This document shows positions 814-12,187 of a stretch of 17,677 nt of DNA, one piece after another. The stretch lies in UHGV virus genome UHGV-0132791. One strand, given 5' to 3'. Made by a program: the position numbers and the translations under genes. The stretch comes from a virus. A model generated the notes under the pieces. It did not search any database. It saw only the letters and a program-made list of their open reading frames with translations, and was not told the origin of the DNA. Position 1 is the stretch's first letter; every line of letters starts with the position of its first letter.

Positions 814-892
814 TTGCTGGTTTTTACACTTAATCTTTTGATAATAAAGAATAAGTTTATCTGGTGCTTTCACTGAATTTTCCTCGTTATCT

Positions 893-930
893 GTGTGTTG
901 CAATCATCTCTGTATTGCAGCTTGTATTGC
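893..930 (+). repeat. Cluster of TGT(A/G)TTGCA direct repeats (candidate integrase arm-type sites), left end
   Basis: TGTGTTGCAA (895-904) and TGTATTGCAGCTTGTATTGC (911-930); a near-identical 20-mer (one mismatch) recurs at 11300-11319 near the right end. Confidence 0.5.
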
Positions 931-945
931 TTTTTGGGGCTAAAA

Positions 946-2181
946 ATGGCTGGCGAGAACAAACTGAGCGACAAAGCGCTTAAAGGATATCTGGGGAAAC
1001 CCAGAGAAAAGCAGATCACCATTGCTGATGGAAAGGGGCTTTCTATTCGTGTGAGTACTAAAGGGGCTGTGAGCTTTGTTTTCTTCTACAGGTTAGCAGG
1101 TGGCCGGGCTGCTCCGGTCTGGCTAACGTTGGGTAAATATCCTGATATGTCACTCAAACAGGCAAGGGAAAAGCGCGACGAGTGCCGTGGTTGGTTGGCT
1201 GACAAACGTGATCCGCGTATCCAGATTAAGATTCAGGCTGAAGAACGCTTAAAGCCGGTCACAGTGGAGGATGCACTAAATTACTGGTATGAAAATTACT
1301 GTAAGGTGCGTCGTAAAACTCATGCTGTAACGCTTGGCAGATTTCGAAAGCATATCTTTCCCTATATCGGTCATTTGCCCGTAAATGACACTCACCTATA
1401 TGAATGGCTGGACTGTTTTGACCGAATTAAACGTAATGCACCAGTTATGGCGGCGTATGTTTTTTCTGACACTAAATTAGCTCTTCGTTTTTGTCGGGTA
1501 CGCCAGTACGCGACGTGTGATGCTTTAAAGGATTTGCGCATGAGTGATGTGGGGCAGATTGCAGGTAAGCGGGATCGGGTTCTGGATGAAGCCGAACTCG
1601 GCCAGCTCTGGAAGGCAATTTTTGTCGAGCCTGATTTAAAACTAATGTCTGAATACACGCGAAAAATGTTTGTGCTTTGTACAGTATTTGGATGTCGAAT
1701 GAGTGAAGCCCGATTATCAGAATGGAGCGAATGGGATCTCGAAAGTTGGGTTTGGACTGTACCAAAAGATCACTCAAAAACTGGTGTTGAAATCGTCAGA
1801 CCAGTACCTGAAATTCTACGACAGTGGGTAACGGATGTTCACGAAGAGACAAAACATACTGGTTATGTGCTGGGAAGTCTGCGAATTAGAGAAAGCGTAA
1901 GCAAGATTGGGGGGAAAATCGGTAAACGTTTGGGCCATGAAAAACAATGGTCACTACACGACCTTAGAAGAACGCTATCTACTCATCTAAGTGATCTCGG
2001 TGTTGAATTTTATGTAGTAGAACAACTGTTAGGCCATGCGCTACCTGGCGTGGCAGGTGTTTACAACCGGAGTAAGTTTATGGCTAAAAAACTGGATGCT
2101 CTGGAACTCTGGACTACATATCTCAATAGCATCGCAGGTGCTGATTCAAAAGTGACAATCCTCAAACAAAAGGTTGGTTAA
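946..2181 (+). CDS. int: Tyrosine site-specific integrase, P4-like family
   Basis: ATG at 946 preceded by GGGG; N-terminal arm-binding-type region (…LSDKALKGY…DGKGLSIRVSTKGAVSFVFFYR…WLTLGKYPDMSLKQAR) and C-terminal catalytic motifs (LHDLRRT…LLGHA…GVYNRS). The ORF track starts at a GTG at 895; the ATG at 946 is preferred. Confidence 0.9.
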   Translation: MAGENKLSDKALKGYLGKPREKQITIADGKGLSIRVSTKGAVSFVFFYRLAGGRAAPVWLTLGKYPDMSLKQAREKRDECRGWLADKRDPRIQIKIQAEERLKPVTVEDALNYWYENYCKVRRKTHAVTLGRFRKHIFPYIGHLPVNDTHLYEWLDCFDRIKRNAPVMAAYVFSDTKLALRFCRVRQYATCDALKDLRMSDVGQIAGKRDRVLDEAELGQLWKAIFVEPDLKLMSEYTRKMFVLCTVFGCRMSEARLSEWSEWDLESWVWTVPKDHSKTGVEIVRPVPEILRQWVTDVHEETKHTGYVLGSLRIRESVSKIGGKIGKRLGHEKQWSLHDLRRTLSTHLSDLGVEFYVVEQLLGHALPGVAGVYNRSKFMAKKLDALELWTTYLNSIAGADSKVTILKQKVG

Positions 2182-2410
2182 CATGAAAAAAATGGCAATT
2201 GTTGATAAAAAGGGTCTGGAGTACATTCCTAACATTGACCGAATGATCCGTGAGAAAGAATGTCGGGAGCTAACCACTCTTGCGAACAGCACACGCTGGA
2301 AGCTGGAGAAGGAAGGAAAATTTCCTAAGCGGATCAAGATTGGTTCCACTGCTGTTGCATATCGTCTTTCAGAAGTGCAGGCATGGATTCGAGGTGAGTG
2401 GGTAGTTTAA
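2174..2410 (+). CDS. alpA: AlpA-family HTH protein (putative excisionase / transcriptional activator)
   Basis: Small ORF overlapping the int stop; …LTTLANSTRWKLEKEGKFPKRIKIGSTAVAYRLSEVQAWI is typical of the AlpA/Xis HTH family. ORF-track start is a TTG at 2174; the first ATG is at 2183. Confidence 0.7.
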   Translation: MVNMKKMAIVDKKGLEYIPNIDRMIREKECRELTTLANSTRWKLEKEGKFPKRIKIGSTAVAYRLSEVQAWIRGEWVV

Positions 2411-2435
2411 ATTATCTCAGAATAAAATATTATGA

Positions 2436-2471
2436 ATTACTGATTTGAGAATTTGTACTCAAATCAGTAAT
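2436..2471. terminator. 14-bp perfect inverted repeat between convergent genes (possible bidirectional terminator)
   Basis: ATTACTGATTTGAG (2436-2449) / loop 8 nt / CTCAAATCAGTAAT (2458-2471), between the alpA stop (2410) and the stop of the minus-strand gene (2480). AT-rich stem with no clean T-run, so weak. Confidence 0.35.
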
Positions 2472-2479
2472 AACATTCT

Positions 2480-3016
2480 TTATAAGAGATTAAATCCAAA
2501 TAAAGAGTAATCATATACCGGGGTGCATTGCATCCCACTGAATATGCTGATGTTTTTTTCTGTTTCTATCCTTTTTTCAATAAGTTGTTGTATATTTTTA
2601 CAGTACAATTTGTGTGTGATGTTATTATCGTAAGCCTGATATAGCAACGTCAATGTTGATGCTATGAAACATGCAGAAAGAAAATGAACTAGTACATGTG
2701 AGCGTTTTTTGGTTGTCCATGATGCATTCGCTTGTGAAATATAAATCATTCTGAGAATGATAATGATGATAGACAGTAACAGACCACTCAATAAAATAAG
2801 TATTGGGTTTGCGTATTTAATTAATGGTTGAGAGCAAAAAACTATTATAGCTCCTGTGACTGCGTATGAGAAAAAGGAGTAATTAAACTTCTTACTCCTT
2901 CTCTCAAGTATTTTAATTTCATCTTGTGTGGGGGGTTTAGATGCCTCCAATATAAGTTTATTAAATGTTTCTGTTATCTTGTTTTTTGTGTTTTTGGCTA
3001 TTTTTTTTAGATTCAT
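2480..3016 (-). CDS. Small membrane protein (two predicted hydrophobic helices), function unknown; AT-rich cargo gene
   Basis: 178-aa ORF with hydrophobic stretches (…AVTGAIIVFCSQPLIKYANPILILLSGLLLSIIIIILRMIYI… and …HVLVHFLSACFIASTLTLLYQAY…); visibly lower GC than its neighbours; GGAG-like SD upstream of the ATG (rc of 3014-3016). Confidence 0.6.
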   Translation of the reverse strand: MNLKKIAKNTKNKITETFNKLILEASKPPTQDEIKILERRSKKFNYSFFSYAVTGAIIVFCSQPLIKYANPILILLSGLLLSIIIIILRMIYISQANASWTTKKRSHVLVHFLSACFIASTLTLLYQAYDNNITHKLYCKNIQQLIEKRIETEKNISIFSGMQCTPVYDYSLFGFNLL

Positions 3017-3366
3017 AGCATTCTAACTCCCTTAACTTATTTATTACTTTCTCTTTATGATAAGAGAGGGGAATGACTTGGTAAAGTGATTTGTCATTAA
3101 TAATGATAATCCTTGCGATAAATATTTCTGCAAGTTATTTACCTGTTTGTTGCTATCTTGTTAAGCGTTGGGTGTGGTTTATGTTTGGAGCGACTTTATT
3201 TAATCGTGATTTTATGGATTTATATTTATATCCTGTAAGATAAGCGCATGTTAGTTCAGGAGTAGTGTCAGATAAAATTATTCGGAGTAGAACTACCTTT
3301 TCTGTTTATTGCCAGTATTTACATAGCAATGCGCCGTAGTTACTCACATCACGGCGCTGATACTAA

Positions 3367-3669
3367 TTATTCAGATTCTTTGGCTTTACGCCGCTGGAGT
3401 TCTTCACGAGCGACGGCTACGAGTTGCCCGATTTCCTCCGCTGCCTTGATGCCGATTTGTTCGACCTTAGCTAAGGCATCCAGTGAAGACACGAGGGGAT
3501 TTTCTCCGCTTCCTTCTGCCTGGCGGCGGGCGATCTCACCGCGCATGGCGGTTACTATGAATCCGGCGTTGCTTTCGCCGTCCAGTTTTACGGATTCCAT
3601 GCCCTCCATAACATCGTGGGGAACCCTGATCGTTGTCATTTGCGATTTTGCATTTTTGTATACAGACAT
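3367..3669 (-). CDS. Putative ribbon-helix-helix (Arc/CopG-like) transcriptional regulator; candidate element repressor
   Basis: 100-aa ORF; the N-terminus has an RHH-like pattern (β-strand TTIRVPHDV, helix, G-E-S-N turn, helix AGFIVTAMRGEIARR); transcribed divergently from the main element operon across a repeat-bearing intergenic region. Confidence 0.55.
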   Translation of the reverse strand: MSVYKNAKSQMTTIRVPHDVMEGMESVKLDGESNAGFIVTAMRGEIARRQAEGSGENPLVSSLDALAKVEQIGIKAAEEIGQLVAVAREELQRRKAKESE

Positions 3670-3877
3670 AGTTAATCACCAATTTGTTATGTGTATATCA
3701 CTATACACAAAAGTGAGATATAAAAACACTTGCAATGTATATCACCACAATATAATGTATATCTCATATTATGGTCGCTATGTATCTCACAATGATCGAT
3801 TCATAAAAACGACGAAACCCGGCAGTGCGCGAACACTAACCGGGCTTCTAACCAAACCGTTAAACGAGGTAACGATT
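3670..3877. promoter_or_regulatory. Divergent promoter/operator region with four ATGTATATC(A/T)C-type direct repeats
   Basis: TGTATATCAC at 3692-3701 and 3736-3745, TGTATATCTC at 3756-3765, TGTATCTCAC at 3781-3790; AT-rich; lies between the RHH gene start (3669) and the first gene of the plus-strand operon (3878). Confidence 0.5.
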
Positions 3878-4243
3878 ATGGCTGGAACACAGCATACCCA
3901 AACTCACCCTAAATTTATATACACCTTTCTGGCACTACACCACGACCGCATGGCAGATGGAGCAACTACGGTACATGTTGCCGCTGACACGCTGGTTGAT
4001 GCCCGCAAGATGGTTAAGGAGATGGGCTATACTGCGGCTTTCTGGAAAGGGCGTGAAGAAAACACGCTGTTTATTCAGAAATGCGAAAACAATTTCATCT
4101 GGCGTTTTATCGCCCTGAGCACCGCACAACCACGCGTAATACACATCGAGGCCGCCAGCGAACAGGAAGCCCGCCAACAATCCCCAACTGGCTGCGTGAT
4201 GATATTCGCCGCCCGTATTCGTCAGGAGGTATGCCGTGCTTAA
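3878..4243 (+). CDS. Hypothetical protein (first gene of element early operon)
   Basis: ATG at 3878 with GAGG 9-12 nt upstream. The ORF-track ORF 3329..4243 extends upstream antisense to the RHH gene; that extension is judged spurious. Confidence 0.55.
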   Translation: MAGTQHTQTHPKFIYTFLALHHDRMADGATTVHVAADTLVDARKMVKEMGYTAAFWKGREENTLFIQKCENNFIWRFIALSTAQPRVIHIEAASEQEARQQSPTGCVMIFAARIRQEVCRA

Positions 4244-4421
4244 AACCTTCCGTGTATTTGCTCGTGCGGTTAACCCACTAGGCCACACAATTGGTATCGC
4301 TCAGAACGTGAAGGCTGTTAATGTTCAGACGGCTATTGCTGCGGTGAGAAGCGAATCATCAGAATATGGCTTATCACAAGTCATTATTTCAGCAGTGTAT
4401 GAATTAAAAGAGGTGCATTAA
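4236..4421 (+). CDS. Hypothetical small protein
   Basis: GTG start at 4236 preceded by a strong AGGAGG (4224-4229); overlaps the upstream stop; 61 aa. Confidence 0.45.
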   Translation: MLKTFRVFARAVNPLGHTIGIAQNVKAVNVQTAIAAVRSESSEYGLSQVIISAVYELKEVH

Positions 4422-4612
4422 TGCAGGAAATTACATTACACGAAGCCGCTGAACGTGCGCACCAGACAGAAATTATTTGCCGCCTTCTTGAGGTATACCC
4501 GAACAAAATTACAGATGCTGATATATCCGCACTGGCGAGCCTACTGGCGCGTCTTTCGGGAAGTGTCGCTAGTTTTTTGATTGAGGAAGAAAGTAAGCTG
4601 GTGGGGGATTAA
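4421..4612 (+). CDS. Hypothetical small protein
   Basis: ATG overlapping the upstream stop (TAATG at 4419-4423), AGAGG SD; 63 aa. Confidence 0.5.
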   Translation: MQEITLHEAAERAHQTEIICRLLEVYPNKITDADISALASLLARLSGSVASFLIEEESKLVGD

Positions 4613-4834
4613 ATGAATACAGAACGGGAAGTCTTTTTTAAATTGTTAGCATGTGCAGAAAGTTCATTAACTTTAAATAATTCAGCAAAAGCAATATTAA
4701 ATATGTGGCTTGATTGCATAAATGACAATGAAGATGCAAATATTGCTTATGGCCTGTTGTCACTTATTGATGAAGCAGCAGAAAAACTCAATGACGCAAT
4801 AAATAGTGCCCTGCTATCAAATAAGTCGAGTTAA
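4613..4834 (+). CDS. Hypothetical small protein (AT-rich)
   Basis: ATG immediately after the preceding stop; 73 aa; lower GC than flanking genes. Confidence 0.45.
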   Translation: MNTEREVFFKLLACAESSLTLNNSAKAILNMWLDCINDNEDANIAYGLLSLIDEAAEKLNDAINSALLSNKSS

Positions 4835-4851
4835 GTCGAGGAATAAATAAT

Positions 4852-5151
4852 ATGGAAATGAAAAATTCTGGCTTTATTGCCAGCGGCCCCGCTCGGCCTG
4901 AATTTATGAACGGCGATATTTACCGCGATAAATACGGCGGCACGGTAACGATTAAAGGCGTGGCAGAACGGCGCATTACTTACCGCCGTGAGGGGTATAG
5001 CTATGACTGCGTGATGCCTGTTTATCAGTTCCGGCGTGATTTTTCCCTGGTATATGCCGCACCCCGCAGTAAGCCCATCAGCAGGGAAAAAGCGCGGGGA
5101 AACATCCAGAAAATGAAAAGCATGATTAACGCATTCAGGGGCAAAAAATGA
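4852..5151 (+). CDS. Hypothetical protein
   Basis: 99-aa ORF with GAGG SD; its stop overlaps the pri-rep start (ATGA at 5148-5151). Confidence 0.5.
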   Translation: MEMKNSGFIASGPARPEFMNGDIYRDKYGGTVTIKGVAERRITYRREGYSYDCVMPVYQFRRDFSLVYAAPRSKPISREKARGNIQKMKSMINAFRGKK

Positions 5152-6899
5152 AACTGGCACCGAACTTAAAAAAACAGCCACGCGACAGACTGACAGAGGT
5201 AATCATCTTTGCAGGTAGTGATGCGTGGAGCCATGCGAAAGAGTGGCAGGAATGGGCGGGTAAACATATTGCCGCCGACGATGTGCCGCCTGTCGTGCTG
5301 GCTGATGAGCAACTGAAAAATATCACCGATTACCGGATCATTGATGAAGATCGTCAGTGTGTGCGTGTTTACCGCGCAGGACATATCACAGAGCACAGCA
5401 TGACGCAGATTGTTACGTTATTGGCTGTGGCTGGAGTGAAGACCGTACACGAATACGCGGGGATTACTGACACCAGCCCCGTGGATTTATCCGACCAGTT
5501 GCCGCGACTCAAAGAGGAATGCGAGCGTGGGGAAAGTCTGGTGCTTAATCTTCCGACGAAGCAAAAGGCGCAACTTTCACAGATGGCAGACAGTGAACGT
5601 GCACAACTACTTGCCGATCGCTTTGATGGTGTGTGTGTTCATGCAGAAAGTGAAATCGTCCACGTATGGCGCGGCGGGGTATGGTGTCCGGTCAGCACAA
5701 TGGAGCTGAGCCGCGAAATGGTGGCGATCTATTCAGAGCACAGGGCCACATTCAGCAAGCGTGCAATTAATAACGCCGTGGAGGCGTTAAAAGTTATTGC
5801 CGACCCCATGGGGGAGCCGTCCGGTGATTTGCTACCGTTCGCCAATGGTGTGCTTGACCTGAAAACGGGGGAATTTTCCCCGCACTCGCCGGAGAACTGG
5901 ATCACCACGCACAACGGCATTGAGTACACGCCACCAGCACCAGGGGAGAACATCCGCGACAACGCGCCAAACTTTCATAAATGGCTTGATCACGCAGCCG
6001 GAAAAGACCCGCGCAAGATGATGCGTATATGTGCCGCGCTGTACATGATTATGGCGAACCGGTACGACTGGCAGATGTTTATTGAGGCCACCGGAGAGGG
6101 CGGTAGCGGTAAAAGTACATTCACACACATAGCCAGCCTTCTGGCAGGGAAACAGAACACGGTAAGCGCTGAAATGACATCGCTTGATGATGCTGGTGGA
6201 CGTGCGCAGGTTGTCGGGAGTCGTCTTATCGTCCTGGCTGACCAGCCGAAATATACAGGCGAAGGCACGGGCATCAAGAAAATCACGGGCGGCGACCCCG
6301 TGGAAATAAACCCGAAATATGAAAAGCGTTTTACGGCGGTAATCAGGGCGGTGGTGCTGGCTACCAACAATAACCCGATGATATTCACCGAACGGGCCGG
6401 AGGTGTGTCACGTCGTCGCGTAATTTTCCGCTTCGACAATATCGTTAGCGAGGCAGAAAAGGACAAGGATTTACCGGAGAAGGTCGCGGCTGAAATCCCC
6501 GTGATTATCCGCAGATTGCTGGCAAACTTTGCTGATCCAGAAAAGGCGCGACATTTGTTGATTGAACAGCGCGACGGTGAAGAAGCACTGGCGATAAAGC
6601 AACAGACGGATCCGGTTATTGAGTTTTGCCAGTTTCTGAATTTTCTGGAGGAAGCGCGCGGCCTGATGATGGGTGGCGGTGGCGATTCCGTGAAGTACAC
6701 GACCAGAAACAGCCTTTACCGCGTCTATCTGGCGTTTATGGCATACGCAGGCAGAAGCAAGCCGCTAAACGTGGCTGATTTCAGCAAGGCCATGAAGCCA
6801 GCGGCGAAAGTTTACGGATGTGAATATATAACGCGCAGGGTTAAAGGACTTACGCAAACCAATGTGACAACAACAGAGGATTGCGACGCGTTTTTATAA
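5148..6899 (+). CDS. Replication initiator, primase-helicase type (P4 alpha C-terminal / PICI Pri-Rep-like SF3 ATPase)
   Basis: 583 aa; Walker A GEGGSGKST (6093-6119), Walker B-like LIVLAD; overall pattern of the phage/plasmid primase P4-family C-terminal domain; followed directly by an iteron array. Confidence 0.85.
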   Translation: MKLAPNLKKQPRDRLTEVIIFAGSDAWSHAKEWQEWAGKHIAADDVPPVVLADEQLKNITDYRIIDEDRQCVRVYRAGHITEHSMTQIVTLLAVAGVKTVHEYAGITDTSPVDLSDQLPRLKEECERGESLVLNLPTKQKAQLSQMADSERAQLLADRFDGVCVHAESEIVHVWRGGVWCPVSTMELSREMVAIYSEHRATFSKRAINNAVEALKVIADPMGEPSGDLLPFANGVLDLKTGEFSPHSPENWITTHNGIEYTPPAPGENIRDNAPNFHKWLDHAAGKDPRKMMRICAALYMIMANRYDWQMFIEATGEGGSGKSTFTHIASLLAGKQNTVSAEMTSLDDAGGRAQVVGSRLIVLADQPKYTGEGTGIKKITGGDPVEINPKYEKRFTAVIRAVVLATNNNPMIFTERAGGVSRRRVIFRFDNIVSEAEKDKDLPEKVAAEIPVIIRRLLANFADPEKARHLLIEQRDGEEALAIKQQTDPVIEFCQFLNFLEEARGLMMGGGGDSVKYTTRNSLYRVYLAFMAYAGRSKPLNVADFSKAMKPAAKVYGCEYITRRVKGLTQTNVTTTEDCDAFL

Positions 6900-6904
6900 T
6901 TTTA

Positions 6905-7145
6905 GACAAAAGCCCTCTACCTCCTCTACCTAAAGAAAATAAATATATATTATTCAATATGATAAGAAGGTAGAGGGTCAGGTAGAAGGCAAATAAAAGC
7001 CCTCTACCTCCTCCACCATGATTAAGGTCATTTGTGAGGGGCGGGTAGAGGATGGGTAGAGGGCCCCGAAAGCCCTCTACCCATCTGAAAGCCGCGCCAT
7101 TACTGACCTGAAAGATGATTAGGTAGAGAGGTAGAGGAGGTGCAC
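6905..7145. repeat. Iteron array / putative element replication origin
   Basis: About 11 copies of CCTCTACC / GGTAGAGG in both orientations (e.g. 6913-6930, 6969-6989, 6999-7017, 7043-7063, 7073-7082, 7122-7140), including the inverted pair GGGTAGAGGGC…GCCCTCTACCC (7054-7082), flanking an AT-rich stretch (6931-6968); immediately 3' of the replication gene. Confidence 0.7.
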
Positions 7146-7185
7146 CACATTTCAAAACTTTTTAAACGAGGGGGTAAAAATAAAA

Positions 7186-7443
7186 ATGCACACATCAGGA
7201 AAACTGAACAAACATATAAAGCCACATTACCGCGCCCTTGATATGGCTGAACATTGGCTAAGGGTGGCGATTAAGGCAATAGATCGCAACGCCGGGGAAG
7301 GATACGCGAAAGCACATCCCGAACTGATAAGCGCATTCATGACAACGGCGGCTGCAAACTTTGCCACGCTGACCGAACGGGAGATTGCCGAAGCGGAGGA
7401 AGTGACAACCATCAATATTAAGTCCGGAGAGCAGGCAGCTTGA
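7186..7443 (+). CDS. Hypothetical protein
   Basis: 85-aa ORF, ATG at 7186 preceded by GAGGGGG; stop overlaps the start of the next gene. Confidence 0.5.
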   Translation: MHTSGKLNKHIKPHYRALDMAEHWLRVAIKAIDRNAGEGYAKAHPELISAFMTTAAANFATLTEREIAEAEEVTTINIKSGEQAA

Positions 7444-7850
7444 CGGCGCAAATAGCAGCTTACGGGCGGCTGGTGGACGACCCACAGGTAAAACATACCA
7501 GCAAGGGAGCACCCATGACACTGGCACGGATGACGGTATCTTTGCCATGCAGCCAGGCAGATGACGGAACGGCGACGATGTGGTTATCTGTCCTGGCGTT
7601 TGGCAGACAAGCCGACGCGCTGGCAAAGCATCACAAAGGCGAACTCCTGAGCGTGGCGGGTAATATGCAGGTGAGCCAGTGGAGCGGACAGAACGGTGAA
7701 ACGCGGCAGCGCTGGCAGGTTATCGCAGACAGCGTAATCAGTGCGCGAACGGTGCGACCTGGCGGGAACAGACGTAAAACCACAGGCACACAGGGCAACA
7801 CACCACCAGCGGGAGGGGATGATCTCTACGGTGACAATATTCCATTCTGA
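7440..7850 (+). CDS. ssb: Single-stranded DNA-binding protein (SSB-like, OB fold)
   Basis: Pattern resembling E. coli SSB (…GRLVDDPQV…, …WLSVLAFGRQADALAKHHKGELLSVAGNMQVSQWSGQNGETRQRWQVIAD…) and a C-terminal tip …DNIPF like the SSB DDDIPF tail. Start is a TTG at 7440 overlapping the upstream stop; exact start uncertain. Confidence 0.7.
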   Translation: MTAQIAAYGRLVDDPQVKHTSKGAPMTLARMTVSLPCSQADDGTATMWLSVLAFGRQADALAKHHKGELLSVAGNMQVSQWSGQNGETRQRWQVIADSVISARTVRPGGNRRKTTGTQGNTPPAGGDDLYGDNIPF

Positions 7851-7858
7851 ACGCACAG

Positions 7859-7878
7859 GCCGGAGAAATCCGGCTTTT
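7859..7878 (+). terminator. Rho-independent terminator downstream of ssb
   Basis: GCCGGA (7859-7864) / GAAA / TCCGGC (7869-7874) followed by TTTT (7875-7878). Confidence 0.6.
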
Positions 7879-8114
7879 ATCAGTTGAGTCCGTCACACCA
7901 CGCAAAAAAAAGGCCGGAATATTCCGACCCTTTCATCACCAAAGAGAATAATTTATGTCTTTGAACTTGTAACGCTGTACAGAATGACACGTAACGCCGG
8001 ATAAATAAACGAAGATTGAAACTTTGCACAATATTGCATAGCAATGCATAAAGATGCCGATCAAGGCAGATGATAAAATTAATACGACACTTTTACTAAG
8101 TATTAAGAGGTTAT

Positions 8115-9155
8115 ATGAGTGATTTATATTCGCCAGCGGAGTTAATACAGACTGTTAATGCTGAAGATATTCAATGGCAGATTAACTCTTTATTTATAAA
8201 CCTGTTTTTTAAGCGAGTCGTTACATTTGAGACGCGGGATATTGCGCTTGATATTATTGACGATCCAGACATCCCGATGGCTGCATTTTGTTCCCCTATG
8301 GTTGGTAGTAAAGTATCACGCGATGAAGGCTACGAATCAAAAGTAATTCGCCCTGGCTACATGAAGCCAAAAAGTAGTATAGACCCAAATAAAATAGCCG
8401 TTCGTCAACCAGGCGTATCACCGGAACAATTCAATGCATATTCATCACGCAATTTCAAAATAAAGCGAGCGATGGTAAGACAAGCGCAGGCCATTCGCGC
8501 ACGTATTGAATGGCTTGCTGTTCAGGCAATCACAACGGGGAAAAATATCATTGAGGGCGATGGCATTGAACGTTATGAACTGGACTGGAATATAAAACCA
8601 CAAAATATTATCACGCAGTCCGGCGGCACGGAGTGGAGCGGTAGAGATTTATCAACATTTGATCCAAATGATGACATCGAAGAGTACGCAGAAATCAGCG
8701 AAGGGACTACAAATATCATCGTAATGGGACGCAACGTATGGAAAAAATACCGCGCCTTTAAAGCAGTAAAAGATTGCCTTGATACTCGACGGGGATCTAA
8801 TTCCGTTCTTGAAACGGCCCTGAAAAATCTTGGGGATTCCGTCAGTTTTAAGGGTTACGTAGGCGATGTGGCTATTGTTGTGTATAGCGGACGTTATACC
8901 GACGAGGACGGAACAGAAAAATATTTCCTTGATCCTGATTTGATGGTTCTTGGCAATACATCACTTCAGGGCATCGTTGCATACGGTGGCATTCAGGATC
9001 CGGAGCTAATCCGAATGGGGCTGACTAAAGCCGAACTCGCACCGAAAAACTACATTGTGCCTGGAGATCCGGCTATTGAGTACGTACAAACGCACTCTGC
9101 ACCACAGCCAATACCGGCCCGCATCAATCGTTTTGTTACCGTTCGCATTGGTTAA
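8115..9155 (+). CDS. Element-encoded major capsid protein, lambda gpE paralogue
   Basis: 346 aa; clearly homologous but divergent from gpE (shared blocks PGYMKPK, ITQSGGTEWS.RD.ST.DP.DDIEEYA, KAVKD.LDTRRGSNS.LETA.K.LG..VS.KGY.GDVAIVVYSG.Y, MVLGNT); strong SD AAGAGG. Confidence 0.9.
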   Translation: MSDLYSPAELIQTVNAEDIQWQINSLFINLFFKRVVTFETRDIALDIIDDPDIPMAAFCSPMVGSKVSRDEGYESKVIRPGYMKPKSSIDPNKIAVRQPGVSPEQFNAYSSRNFKIKRAMVRQAQAIRARIEWLAVQAITTGKNIIEGDGIERYELDWNIKPQNIITQSGGTEWSGRDLSTFDPNDDIEEYAEISEGTTNIIVMGRNVWKKYRAFKAVKDCLDTRRGSNSVLETALKNLGDSVSFKGYVGDVAIVVYSGRYTDEDGTEKYFLDPDLMVLGNTSLQGIVAYGGIQDPELIRMGLTKAELAPKNYIVPGDPAIEYVQTHSAPQPIPARINRFVTVRIG

Positions 9156-9164
9156 GGGGGAGCA

Positions 9165-9506
9165 ATGGCTACTCATTACACTGAACTCATGGCTGGCACT
9201 GAAGCACTGGTTACTACGTTGGGGATATTTTCAGCTAATAAAGGGGTAATTCCTGCATTTACGCCACTGATGCAAGAAGATGCAACTGGTGCACTGGTGG
9301 TATGGGATGGAACGAGCGCAGGCAAAGCTGTTTATGTTTCCGCTGTACAAATCGATACAGCGACAAAAACGCAGGCTCAGGTTTATAAAACCGGCGTCTT
9401 AAATGTTGATGCTCTGAACTGGCCTGAGTCTGTAACACAACTATCAGCAAAAGTTGCTGCGTTTGTTGGCTCAGGTATTTCTGTTCAGCCGCTGGCACGT
9501 GTGTGA
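9165..9506 (+). CDS. Element-encoded head decoration protein, lambda gpD paralogue
   Basis: 113 aa; gpD-like blocks (TPLM…LVVWDGT…YKTG…WPE…) and length; immediately downstream of the capsid paralogue, with SD AAGGGGGAG. Confidence 0.8.
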   Translation: MATHYTELMAGTEALVTTLGIFSANKGVIPAFTPLMQEDATGALVVWDGTSAGKAVYVSAVQIDTATKTQAQVYKTGVLNVDALNWPESVTQLSAKVAAFVGSGISVQPLARV

Positions 9507-9515
9507 GGTACGAGA

Positions 9516-9860
9516 ATGATTGAAAGAGATAGTCAGCTACGAGAGCTATTAGATATCGATGACAAAATGCGCTTAAGCGAGCGTCTTGTCGATATGAATC
9601 AGGTGATGGAACTTACAACCCTGAGTCGCCGTACACTGCTAAACCTTGAGGCTCGTGGAGAGTTCCCTGAGCGTGTGCAGGTTACGGAAGGGCGTAAGGC
9701 TTGGTATTTAAGCGAGGTTGTTGAGTGGATTAACAATATCCCGCGAGCATCAAACTATTGCCTCGTACCCACACCGGAAAAACCTGATGCGGCGTTATGC
9801 CTCAAGATTGAACGCGCCAGGCGTAATGCCCTGAAAGGGCGCAATAAGTTGATTGGTTGA
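9516..9860 (+). CDS. Second AlpA-family HTH regulator
   Basis: 114 aa; …MNQVMELTTLSRRTLLNLEARGEFPERVQVTEGRKAWYLSEVVEWI… is AlpA/HTH_17-like; located between the decoration gene and the cos site. Confidence 0.7.
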   Translation: MIERDSQLRELLDIDDKMRLSERLVDMNQVMELTTLSRRTLLNLEARGEFPERVQVTEGRKAWYLSEVVEWINNIPRASNYCLVPTPEKPDAALCLKIERARRNALKGRNKLIG

Positions 9861-9868
9861 TGAAATTA

Positions 9869-9895
9869 GGGCCCGCTCTGGCTGGCGGGTCCTTT
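9869..9895 (+). terminator. GC-rich hairpin plus short T run after second AlpA-like gene
   Basis: GGGCCCGC (9869-9876) / 8-nt loop / GCGGGTCC (9885-9892) with one G·U pair, followed by TTT. Confidence 0.35.
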
Positions 9896-9913
9896 CCGGC
9901 AATCCGGCAGACT

Positions 9914-9950
9914 ACGGGGCGGAAGGCGCGCGGGTTTTCGCTATTTATGA
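9914..9950. other. cos-like site (cosN region) of the element
   Basis: ACGGGGCGGAAGGCGCGCGGGTTTTCGCTATTTATGA: flanks match the lambda cos left-end sequence as I recall it (…ACGGGGCGGCGACCTCGCGGGTTTTCGCTATTTATGA…), but the central hexamer differs (AAGGCG vs CGACCT); lies about 150 bp upstream of the Nu1-like TerS, as in lambda. Confidence 0.6.
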
Positions 9951-10076
9951 GCATTTTTAGGGGACTGGTGGTGGTTTTGTTGTTCGCTATATCTGTATGA
10001 ATAATAAGAGAAAAACACAATCAACACACCAACCTGAAACAGTAATTAAGTTGTGGTATCAATGAAATTGCACCTG

Positions 10077-10604
10077 ATGAACAAAAAAAACATGGCAAAA
10101 AGTTGCCGTGTAAGCGCCACTGCGTTCGATAAGTGGGGAGTGATTCCCGTCGAGCGTAAGGGCCGCGAGGCGTTTTATGATGTCGCCAGTGTAATAGATA
10201 ATCGGGTTAACAATGCAATCAGCCAGATTACAAACGAAACGGGCGAGATTGATGATGATGAACTCCTACGAGTCAGGATCAGATTGCTGACAGCACAGGC
10301 AGAGGCGCAGGAGCTTAAAAACGAGCGCGAACGCGGCGACGTTATTGATACAGCGTTTTGTATATACGTGCTTTCAAAACTGGCGAGTCAGATTTCTTCA
10401 ATCATGGACAGCCTGCCGCTTGCCATGACAAGGAAGTTTCCCGACATGAAGCCGTCTATGCTGGATGGACTGAAAAAAGAAGTTATCAGAGCCTGTAACG
10501 CATGCGCAAAACTTGACGAAAACATACCGCTGATGCTGTCCGATTATCTGATGGAAACTGCCGGAAACGTACCGGATAAGTTGCAGCTGAATAAAGATAA
10601 GTAA
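10077..10604 (+). CDS. Terminase small subunit, lambda Nu1-like
   Basis: Homology to lambda Nu1 (MNKKNMAKS…YDVASVID…LLTAQAEAQELKNERERGDVIDTAFCIYVLSKLASQISSIMDSLPLAMTRKFPDMK vs Nu1 …LTRAQADAQELKNARDSAEVVETAFCTFVLSRIAGEIASILDGLPLSVQRRFPELE). ORF track begins at a GTG at 10053; ATG 10077 is chosen by alignment with the Nu1 N-terminus. Confidence 0.85.
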   Translation: MNKKNMAKSCRVSATAFDKWGVIPVERKGREAFYDVASVIDNRVNNAISQITNETGEIDDDELLRVRIRLLTAQAEAQELKNERERGDVIDTAFCIYVLSKLASQISSIMDSLPLAMTRKFPDMKPSMLDGLKKEVIRACNACAKLDENIPLMLSDYLMETAGNVPDKLQLNKDK

Positions 10605-10615
10605 CGTAGTACGCT

Positions 10616-10897
10616 ATGACTGAATCCGAAATACTGCGATTAATCCGCCGTGCTTGTGGAATCAGCAAGCAGCATGACGAACAGGCCACGCAGCCGGACA
10701 GCGTGATCGCCGAAAATTACGCGCGTGTTGTTGCTGATGTGATGCGCCGTGATGGTATTGAGCTTAACGGCGTGGATATGCGCGACATACGGATCAGATT
10801 CCTTGAGTTGCTGGCATACCGTCGCCGTTCTCAACAACGAAGGGAGAGCGCGAAAAACACTTATCAGTGGAAGAAGCCGGAACGGTTGCGGCGGTAG
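10616..10897 (+). CDS. Hypothetical basic protein downstream of TerS
   Basis: 93-aa ORF, ATG at 10616 twelve nt after the TerS stop; no recognisable similarity to terminase large subunit. Confidence 0.45.
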   Translation: MTESEILRLIRRACGISKQHDEQATQPDSVIAENYARVVADVMRRDGIELNGVDMRDIRIRFLELLAYRRRSQQRRESAKNTYQWKKPERLRR

Positions 10898-11235
10898 ATT
10901 CCTGATATTCAGGAAAACCACGAATCCGGGGGTTTACTGGCGCGGTTACGGCGGTGACACACACCGAGGCAGAACAATTACCGTAGGTTAAAGCGACAGT
11001 ATTCACACCAAAGGCAGAAATTAGCTGTTAACGTAACTGACTGATATTTTCGGGAACAGCCAACGGCTGAGGCCGGAGCTATAAAAATAGCTTTGGGTAC
11101 AGTCCTCAGTTTTGAGGGATGTTAACCAACTGAATAATAAGCAAACCTCAAAATTGAGTTTTGTATCTGCCTGAGTTATTTCTGTGCTAACTTGCTGATA
11201 TTCCCGATAACGCAAAATTGCGTTGGCTGGTGGGT

Positions 11236-11255
11236 GAGTTGCAGATCTGCAACTC
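11236..11255. repeat. 20-bp perfect palindrome GAGTTGCAGATCTGCAACTC near right end of element
   Basis: Exact dyad symmetry over 20 bp, about 140 bp inside the right att core; contains the TTGCA motif shared with the arm-type repeats. Confidence 0.6.
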
Positions 11256-11299
11256 GGCTATGAAACTTAATAATCGAACAGCATGTAAATTCATTTCTG

Positions 11300-11320
11300 T
11301 GTATTGCAGCATGTATTGCA
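11300..11320 (+). repeat. TGTATTGCAGCATGTATTGCA direct repeats (candidate arm-type sites), right end
   Basis: Matches 911-930 (TGTATTGCAGCTTGTATTGC) with one mismatch, in the same orientation, about 77 bp inside the right core. Confidence 0.5.
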
Positions 11321-11396
11321 ACATAGTCATTCTGGTAGAGATTATGCTCTATTTTTCCTCTTATATCATTCACATACTTACGTCATTGACTCATGT

Positions 11397-11406
11397 AACC
11401 CAAGCA
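11397..11406 (+). repeat. Right copy of 10-bp att core / target duplication (AACCCAAGCA)
   Basis: Identical to 773-782; preceded by an in-frame TAA (11396-11398) that ends the element-side frame. Confidence 0.75.
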
Positions 11407-12187
11407 TGAGGTGAATCCGCAGATGACCCTGCGTCGCCTGCCGGATGAAGATCCGCAGAACCTGGCTGACCCGGCTTACCGTCGTCGCCGTATTATTCGG
11501 CAGAATATGCTGGATGAAAATCTGGCGATTGCCCAGGTCGAAGAGATGCAGGCAGTTTCTGCCGTGCTTAAGGGCAAATATACCATGACCGGTGAAGCCT
11601 TCGATCCGGTTGAGGTGGATATGGGCCGCAGTGAGGCGAATAACATCACGCAGTCCGGCGGCACGGAGTGGAGCAAGCGTGACAAGTCCACGTATGACCC
11701 GACCGACGATATCGAAGCCTACGCGCTGAACGCCAGCGGTGTGGTGAATATCATCGTGTTCGATCCGAAAGGCTGGGCGCTGTTCCGTTCCTTCAAAGCC
11801 GTCAAGGAGAAGCTGGATACCCGTCGCGGCTCTCATTCCGAGCTGGAGACAGCGGTAAAAGACCTGGGCAAAGCGGTGTCCTATAAGGGAATGTATGGCG
11901 ATGTGGCCATCGTCGTGTATTCCGGACAGTACGTGGAAAACGGCGTCAAAAAGAACTTCCTGCCGGACAACACGATGGTGCTGGGGAACACTCAGGCTCG
12001 CGGTCTGCGCACCTATGGCTGCATTCAGGATGCGGACGCACAGCGCGAAGGCATTAACGCCTCTGCCCGTTACCCGAAAAACTGGGTGACCACCGGCGAT
12101 CCGGCGCGTGAGTTCACCATGATTCAGTCAGCACCGCTGATGCTGCTGGCTGATCCTGATGAGTTCGTGTCCGTACAACTGGCGTAA
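11399..12187 (+). pseudogene. E: Major capsid protein gpE, 3' fragment (codons ~80-341), separated from its 5' part by the insertion
   Basis: Translation PKHEVNPQMTLRRLPDEDPQNLADPAYRRRRII…DEFVSVQLA* matches the lambda gpE C-terminal 260 residues almost exactly; there is no start codon or RBS of its own at the homology boundary (the ORF track starts at an internal GTG at 11411). Confidence 0.9.

Follow-up and report, generated by a model that had tools for sequence, protein, structure and literature searches.

The 17,677-base window (the whole stretch of DNA analysed here) contains a prophage whose major capsid gene is split: positions 1-78 of the capsid E profile are matched at 538-813 and positions 94-328 at 11411-12187. 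A satellite element of the PICI type (≈820-11400) sits between the two halves on the same strand. The prophage genes that flank it are a D gene upstream and the FI, head-closure, tail completion, terminator and major tail genes downstream. Such a helper-embedded PICI (HE-PICI) arrangement was described for 11capE in E. coli NRG857c (PMC10111431), and the window agrees with it in carrying its satellite inside the capsid gene. The same capsid-gene insertion is found in E. coli 20Ec-P-124 (L001). As in other Gram-negative PICIs, the int, alpA and pri-rep genes form a unidirectional module, and an array of short repeats (iterons) lies immediately 3' of pri-rep. The coordinates of these features are collected in Table 1. 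Two AlpA-family genes (2174-2410 and 9516-9860) are present in this single satellite.

Table 1. Genes and sequence features of the satellite element in the window.
Feature	Position	Strand	Description
Integrase gene	895-2181		PICI element
AlpA gene	2174-2410		PICI element; next after int
Pri-Rep gene	5148-6899	+	583 aa; D5_N 152-282; SF3 helicase/DUF5906 315-416; C-terminal origin-binding domain, putative (Pfam, NCBIfam)
Putative origin-binding domain	6606-6881	+	Codons 487-578; homologous to P4 alpha C-terminal domain (PDB 1ka8)
Covarying codons 543 and 546	6774-6776, 6783-6785	+	Track the iteron class
Iteron pair 1	6914-6930	+	Two direct CCTCTACC, 9 bp spacing; offsets +17F, +26F from the stop codon; kept in 14 of 14 E. 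coli/Shigella relatives
AT-rich spacer	6931-6968		89.5% A+T; candidate DNA-unwinding element; iteron pairs 1 and 2 flank it head-to-head
Iteron pair 2	6969-6988	-	GGTAGAGG and GGTAGAAG, 12 bp spacing; +70R, +82R
Iteron pair 3	7001-7017	+	CCTCTACC and degenerate CCTCCACC, 9 bp spacing; +104F, +113F
Iteron pair 4	7044-7062	-	Two GGTAGAGG, 11 bp spacing; +145R, +156R
Inverted iteron pair (7055 R / 7074 F)	7050-7086		Could form a hairpin or cruciform; 15-bp stem, 7-nt loop
Non-iteron block CTGAAAGCCGCGCCATTACTGAC	7086-7108	+	Near-invariant in 15 relatives despite differing iteron flanks
Iteron pair 5	7122-7137	-	GGTAGAGA and GGTAGAGG, 8 bp spacing; +223R, +231R
Block AAAACTTTTTAAACGAGGGGGTAAAAATAAA	7157-7187	+	A/T element, then orf85 ribosome-binding site; invariant in 15 relatives
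orf85	7186-7443	+	phrog_1231; replication module
Single-strand DNA-binding protein gene (ssb)	7440-7850	+	Replication module
Lambda-E-type capsid gene and D-type decoration gene	8115-9506		PICI element
Second AlpA-like gene	9516-9860		Between the decoration gene and terS
Small terminase gene (TerS)	10053-10604		PICI element

The array occupies the 286-bp gap between the 583-residue ORF (5148-6899) and an 85-residue ORF, which is followed by the SSB gene, and starts 15 nt past the stop codon of the former. The octamer CCTCTACC or its complement GGTAGAGG occurs exactly at 6914, 6923, 6969, 7001, 7044, 7055, 7074 and 7130 (eight copies), and copies of CCTCTACC with one mismatch at 6981, 7010 and 7122 bring the total to 11 within 6914-7137. 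With CCTCTACC on the plus strand denoted F, the layout reads FF(6914,6923)-AT-RR(6969,6981)-FF(7001,7010)-RR(7044,7055)-F(7074)-RR(7122,7130), and the spacing within pairs is 8-12 bp. Outside the array, the whole window contains no exact copy in either orientation. When one mismatch was allowed, the window held 24 matches to CCTCTACC, against 7.96 ± 2.78 in 200 dinucleotide shuffles, none of which reached 24. This octamer is also the most clustered in the window, with eight copies in 240 bp, compared to three for the next unrelated 8-mer.

The 40-bp segment starting at 6926, which runs through most of the AT-rich spacer, is the least stable duplex in the whole 17.7 kb, and the equivalent of 6931-6968 is AT-rich in every relative aligned. 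Further downstream, the reverse copy at 7055 and the forward copy at 7074 form an inverted pair with 11 bp of perfect complementarity (7054-7064 / 7072-7082), in which the stem grows to 15 bp (7050-7064 / 7072-7086). As single-stranded DNA, this stem has a predicted free energy of -24.6 kcal/mol (z = -6.9). An inverted R-F pair is seen in relatives too, and each P4 crr unit begins with one. We considered the hairpin as an intrinsic terminator and rejected it, since it is without a T-run. The inspection of the sequence that preceded this analysis had described about 11 copies in both orientations within some 240 bp, a near-perfect inverted pair at 7054-7082 and an AT-rich stretch at 6931-6968, and all three descriptions were borne out.

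A scan of GTDB genomes, which gave four loci, and a scan of IMG/VR were carried out, and 94 related loci were compared overall. In the annotated genomes of 14 E. coli and Shigella relatives, 9-11 copies of the TCTACC core are found at near-identical offsets from the pri-rep stop codon (+17F, +26F, +70/72R, +82R or +94F, +104F, +113F, +145R, +156R, +177F, +223R and +231R). The three copies with one mismatch in the window are true sites, because perfect copies occupy the same offsets in relatives; the degenerate +113 site, for example, is perfect in L010, L012 and L019. The layout FF-AT-R-FF-RR-F-RR is kept, with other repeats, in relatives whose protein is 41-52% identical. The repeat is ACTGTTCAC in Serratia and TGTTCAT in Morganella, and in phage vB_KppS-Ant it is GTGTTCACC, which is the P4 type-1 repeat. 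Each class of E. coli loci has its own two bases 5' of the TCTACC core, and all copies change together. The window and the other members of its class have CC[C/T]TCTACC, L001 has TT[A/G]TCTACC, and CT[G/A]TCTACC is found in CFT073, Nissle and others. We refer to CCTCTACC as the class-1 and to CTGTCTACC as the class-2 iteron. Judged from these alignments, the concerted change of 8-bp repeats at 11 fixed positions points to selection by one binding protein.

Two non-iteron blocks are conserved to the same degree as the iterons, namely 7086-7108 and the A/T element AAAACTTTTTAAAC at 7157-7170, which shows no variation in 15 relatives. Counterparts of the two blocks are found in the P4 crr unit. 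A CTGAAA motif stands at the place equivalent to 7086-7108 in each crr unit and in L007. For the A/T element, a similar block comes after the last iteron pair and reads aaaaaaaactttttt in P4 crr and ATAAAACTTTTTGC in the Morganella locus L004. Possible roles of the 7157-7170 element are those of a start site, a binding site for a host factor or a promoter element. The order pri-rep, array, orf85, ssb is identical in all relatives. Scans for sigma-70-like promoters and terminators in 6700-7400, for Rfam families in the window, and for DnaA boxes (up to two mismatches), IHF sites and GATC in the array gave no match. We count these results for a replication origin, as nothing in them points to another role.

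The protein encoded upstream of the array, Pri-Rep, shares 40.8% identity with P4 alpha across residues 137-579, and its residues 225-431 match the structure of the SaPI5 primase-helicase (7ola) with an E-value of 1.5e-13. Residues 487-578 match PDB 1ka8 (E = 2.8e-7 with the full protein as query, 2.2e-8 with the domain alone), which we take to be the origin-binding winged helix of P4 alpha that recognises the type-1 repeats. The gene had been called a primase-helicase in the earlier note; the helicase and origin-binding domains were recovered, but a primase domain was not. Neither Zn_Ribbon_Prim nor Toprim matched Pri-Rep even at E ≤ 10, whereas P4 alpha and the Morganella homologue (L004) have both. 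By domain content, the "primase" in its name is a database label, and a very common E. coli protein family is thus annotated as "DNA primase" with no recognisable primase domain. Residues 1-140 (window 5148-5570) have no Pfam or NCBIfam match. The alleles of this N-terminal domain are only ≈45% identical to one another, and it is shuffled independently of the remainder of the protein, being 99% identical to that of L001 and 45% to that of L008. It is predicted to have an α/β fold (pLDDT 60-84), for which Foldseek returned no significant match. The 99%-identical protein cluster is from E. coli, and the IMG/VR contig L020 carries a 100%-identical gene.

Fillol-Salom et al. (2018, ISME J) reported that PICIs carry an ori after pri-rep and examined that of EcCICFT073 by means of a temperature-sensitive plasmid (PMC6092414). 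The plasmid with the EcCICFT073 pri-ori fragment was kept at 44 °C, the Δpri derivative was not maintained at this temperature, and the Δori plasmid gave significantly fewer colonies, its maintenance being described as "significantly reduced" (PMC6092414). Maintenance of the EcCICFT073 plasmid thus depends on pri-rep and on the ori fragment in cis. We mapped the published primers (supplement of PMC6092414) on the CFT073 chromosome (L016). The Δori insert ends 4 nt past the pri-rep stop codon, and the pri-ori insert ends ≈20 nt into the next ORF, where the end primer matches CFT073 with a one-base difference. This places the deleted "ori" at L016 2553-2859, which corresponds to window 6904 to ≈7208, and these limits identify the fragment deleted as "ori" with the homologous array. 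The fragment also holds both non-iteron blocks, including the whole of 7157-7187, so that the deletion did not single out the iterons.

EcCICFT073 is a close relative of the window element. The helicase part of Pri-Rep is ≈96% and the C-terminal domain 92% identical, the genes are arranged in the same way (DUF4222, pri-rep, array, orf85, ssb), and 11 TCTACC-core iterons are found at the same offsets, with the AT-rich spacer in the same place. The two differ in the iteron class and the accompanying residues of Pri-Rep (CT[G/A]TCTACC with N543/G546 in EcCICFT073, CC[C/T]TCTACC with A543/S546 in the window), in the use of a +94F site where the window has +82R, and in the N-terminal 140 residues of Pri-Rep, which are ≈45% identical. 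Furthermore, the window element is embedded in a prophage capsid gene, unlike EcCICFT073. The arrangement given in the legend to Fig. 2a of PMC6092414 is found here, with the forward pair at 6914-6930 and the reverse pair at 6969-6988 on either side of the AT-rich stretch. Thus, the array very probably serves as the origin (ori) of vegetative replication for a Gram-negative, helper-embedded PICI that resides in the capsid gene of an E. coli lambdoid prophage. This strengthens the candidate origin proposed in the earlier note, since the alignment with the experimentally tested ori of EcCICFT073 matches the two arrays site by site. From the homologues we infer that Pri-Rep binds to and initiates at the window array. 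An origin of this type is already described and experimentally supported in EcCICFT073, and the window feature is an allele of it. Its placement is useful for annotating PICIs and HE-PICIs and for building PICI-based vectors, and does not define a new kind of element.

The origins of the SaPIs SaPIbov1 and SaPI1 are likewise found immediately 3' of rep, where two sets of short iterons flank an AT-rich region, and a SaPI rep-ori segment drives autonomous replication (PMC6092414). The window shares this arrangement and a related helicase core, as seen in the match to SaPI5. The SaPI ori sequences, however, are unrelated to those of the window, the host is Gram-positive, and Pri and Rep are often separate proteins. 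Iteron plasmids such as pSC101, R6K, RK2 and P1 also have repeated initiator-binding sites beside an AT-rich unwinding element. These plasmids have direct repeats of 17-22 bp, DnaA boxes and a winged-helix Rep without a helicase, and host DnaB is loaded. In the window, by contrast, repeats of 8-9 bp are found in either orientation, the helicase is part of the initiator, and DnaA boxes are absent.

Phage P4 is similar to the window in the D5_N, SF3-helicase and C-terminal origin-binding domains of alpha, in its octamer repeats in both orientations, in an array directly 3' of the initiator gene, and in having no DnaA boxes. Alpha also has the Zn-ribbon and Toprim primase domains, which Pri-Rep is without. 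The P4 repeat is TGTTCACC, compared to CCTCTACC in the window, and among the relatives, repeats like TGTTCACC are confined to L003 and L007, which are more distant. P4 has two clusters (4314-4585 and 9310-9413), with ori and crr ≈4.5 kb apart, whereas the window has one. In the P4 record, the crr (cis replication region) is the array that immediately follows alpha, and it is made up of two 120-bp repeats with five type-1 repeats each. These statements on ori and crr follow the GenBank annotation and general background on P4. The comparison with origins 3' of primase-helicase genes that was drawn in the earlier note therefore holds for PICIs, and for SaPIs as well, but not for P4, in which the array at this place is crr. 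The PICI array works like an origin and is related to the P4 system without its bipartite organisation, and what is divided between ori and crr in P4 appears to be united in the one array.

This difference raises the question of whether the array could instead be an auxiliary cis element like P4 crr, bound by Pri-Rep while initiation needs or uses a separate origin elsewhere. Its position corresponds to that of crr and not of the P4 ori, and its distal half (inverted pair, CTGAAA, spacer, RR and AAAACTTTTT) has the same order of elements as one 120-bp crr unit. P4 has two iteron clusters, whereas a single one was found in the window and in each of the complete relatives L001, L007 and L008. 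In addition, the EcCICFT073 pri-ori fragment, in which this array is the sole iteron cluster, is sufficient for maintenance (PMC6092414). Taken together, we consider an element that only assists a distant origin to be unlikely. It is very unlikely that the repeats are mainly operators, serving pri-rep autoregulation, control of orf85 and ssb, or control of copy number by handcuffing. The array does lie directly upstream of orf85 and ssb, with a conserved block that abuts the orf85 ribosome-binding site, and plasmid iterons commonly double as regulatory sites. However, such operators are difficult to reconcile with a region (6700-7400) that has no sigma-70-like promoter or terminator, and with an AT-rich core between head-to-head sites, which is a feature of origins. 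Deletion of the homologous region also impairs maintenance that depends on replication (PMC6092414). A regulatory role may nevertheless exist as a secondary function, as it is compatible with that of an origin.

The satellite encodes its own TerS, and a minus-strand ORF of 101 aa (6850-7155) overlaps the array, from which one might suppose that the array is a packaging site (cos/pac) for this TerS, or else a coding or chance feature. The repeats covary with Pri-Rep, however, and not with packaging genes, and PICI cos sites are located near the late end of the element (PMC10111431). No CDS is annotated over the array in any relative, which led us to reject the minus-strand ORF as a gene, and the shuffle statistics (24 against 7.96 ± 2.78) rule out an array formed by chance. 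We regard this whole group of explanations as extremely improbable.

A self-contained origin served by an initiator that is also a helicase is the best-supported reading. By analogy with PICI biology, Pri-Rep would be made after induction. Its C-terminal P4-alpha-type domain would then bind the 8-9-bp iterons (c-C-[C/T]-TCTACC) at the 11 fixed positions, as suggested by homology and covariation. By analogy with P4 alpha and SaPI Rep, the SF3 helicase would be assembled by protomers bound on either side of 6931-6968, at the head-to-head pairs, and would open this stretch, the weakest duplex in the region. The opened strands would presumably be covered by the SSB of the element itself as replication proceeds. 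The absence of DnaA boxes, IHF sites and GATC from the array fits independence from the host initiator, and P4 replication is likewise independent of it.

In the first 15 sequences compared, only two of the 583 aligned columns of Pri-Rep separate the main iteron classes, and both are inside the 1ka8-like domain: A543/S546 accompanies CC, and N543/G546 accompanies CT or TT. Residues 543 and 546 predict the iteron class in 62 of the 63 unique combinations of domain and array (98.4%; 94 loci), an association that is confounded by linkage to the array, 140 bp away, and by shared ancestry. The next best column of Pri-Rep reaches 76%, and the best column of the equally near 85-residue ORF downstream reaches 83%. 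Among 120 database cluster representatives, 88 have AS and 32 have NG, with no other combination. Ser546 is peculiar to the CCTCTACC class, while Gly is found in every other class, P4 alpha included. The sole mismatch, L062 (IMGVR_UViG_3300029303_000153, around positions 2740-3250), combines A543/S546 with class-2 CT[G/A]TCTACC iterons, and its crossover lies just downstream of codon 546. Alignment with the 1ka8 sequence, together with low-confidence models, places both residues in the first turn of the third helix, the putative recognition helix. The AlphaFold2 models of the C-terminal domain alone (pLDDT 55) and of full-length Pri-Rep (pLDDT 40; 120 homologues, 97% identical per column) are too poor to position residues 543 and 546 reliably, and Foldseek found nothing significant with either. 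The alignment was shallow, as the homologues were close E. coli relatives only.

Comparison of the window with the HE-PICI L001 revealed a replaced segment (≈6050-7230) that comprises the C-terminal third of Pri-Rep and the entire array. The two elements are 98-100% identical on either side of this segment, but 44-89% identical within it. With L008, a PICI located elsewhere on the chromosome (cspD/clpS), the identity across this segment is 95-100%. The origin-binding domain and the array therefore travel together as a cassette.

We tentatively propose, as a joint reading that we hold to be quite possible but slightly short of probable, that A543/S546 versus N543/G546 is a minimal specificity switch by which Pri-Rep is retargeted between CC[C/T]TCTACC and CT[G/A]TCTACC, that domain and origin are exchanged as a cassette (≈6050-7230), and that the PICI array is the fused equivalent of the separate ori and crr of P4. 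If this is true, switch and cassette exchange together would give PICIs with common hosts and helpers orthogonal replicons. The natural covariation of initiator and iterons, in which a change of two amino acids goes with a change of two bases at 11 sites, offers a design for specificity-swap experiments on origin-binding domains of the P4 alpha type. The replication module (query 5100-7500) is very common, with matches in 1067 of the 5426 complete E. coli genomes searched; all of them are chromosomal, and a single genome has up to eight.
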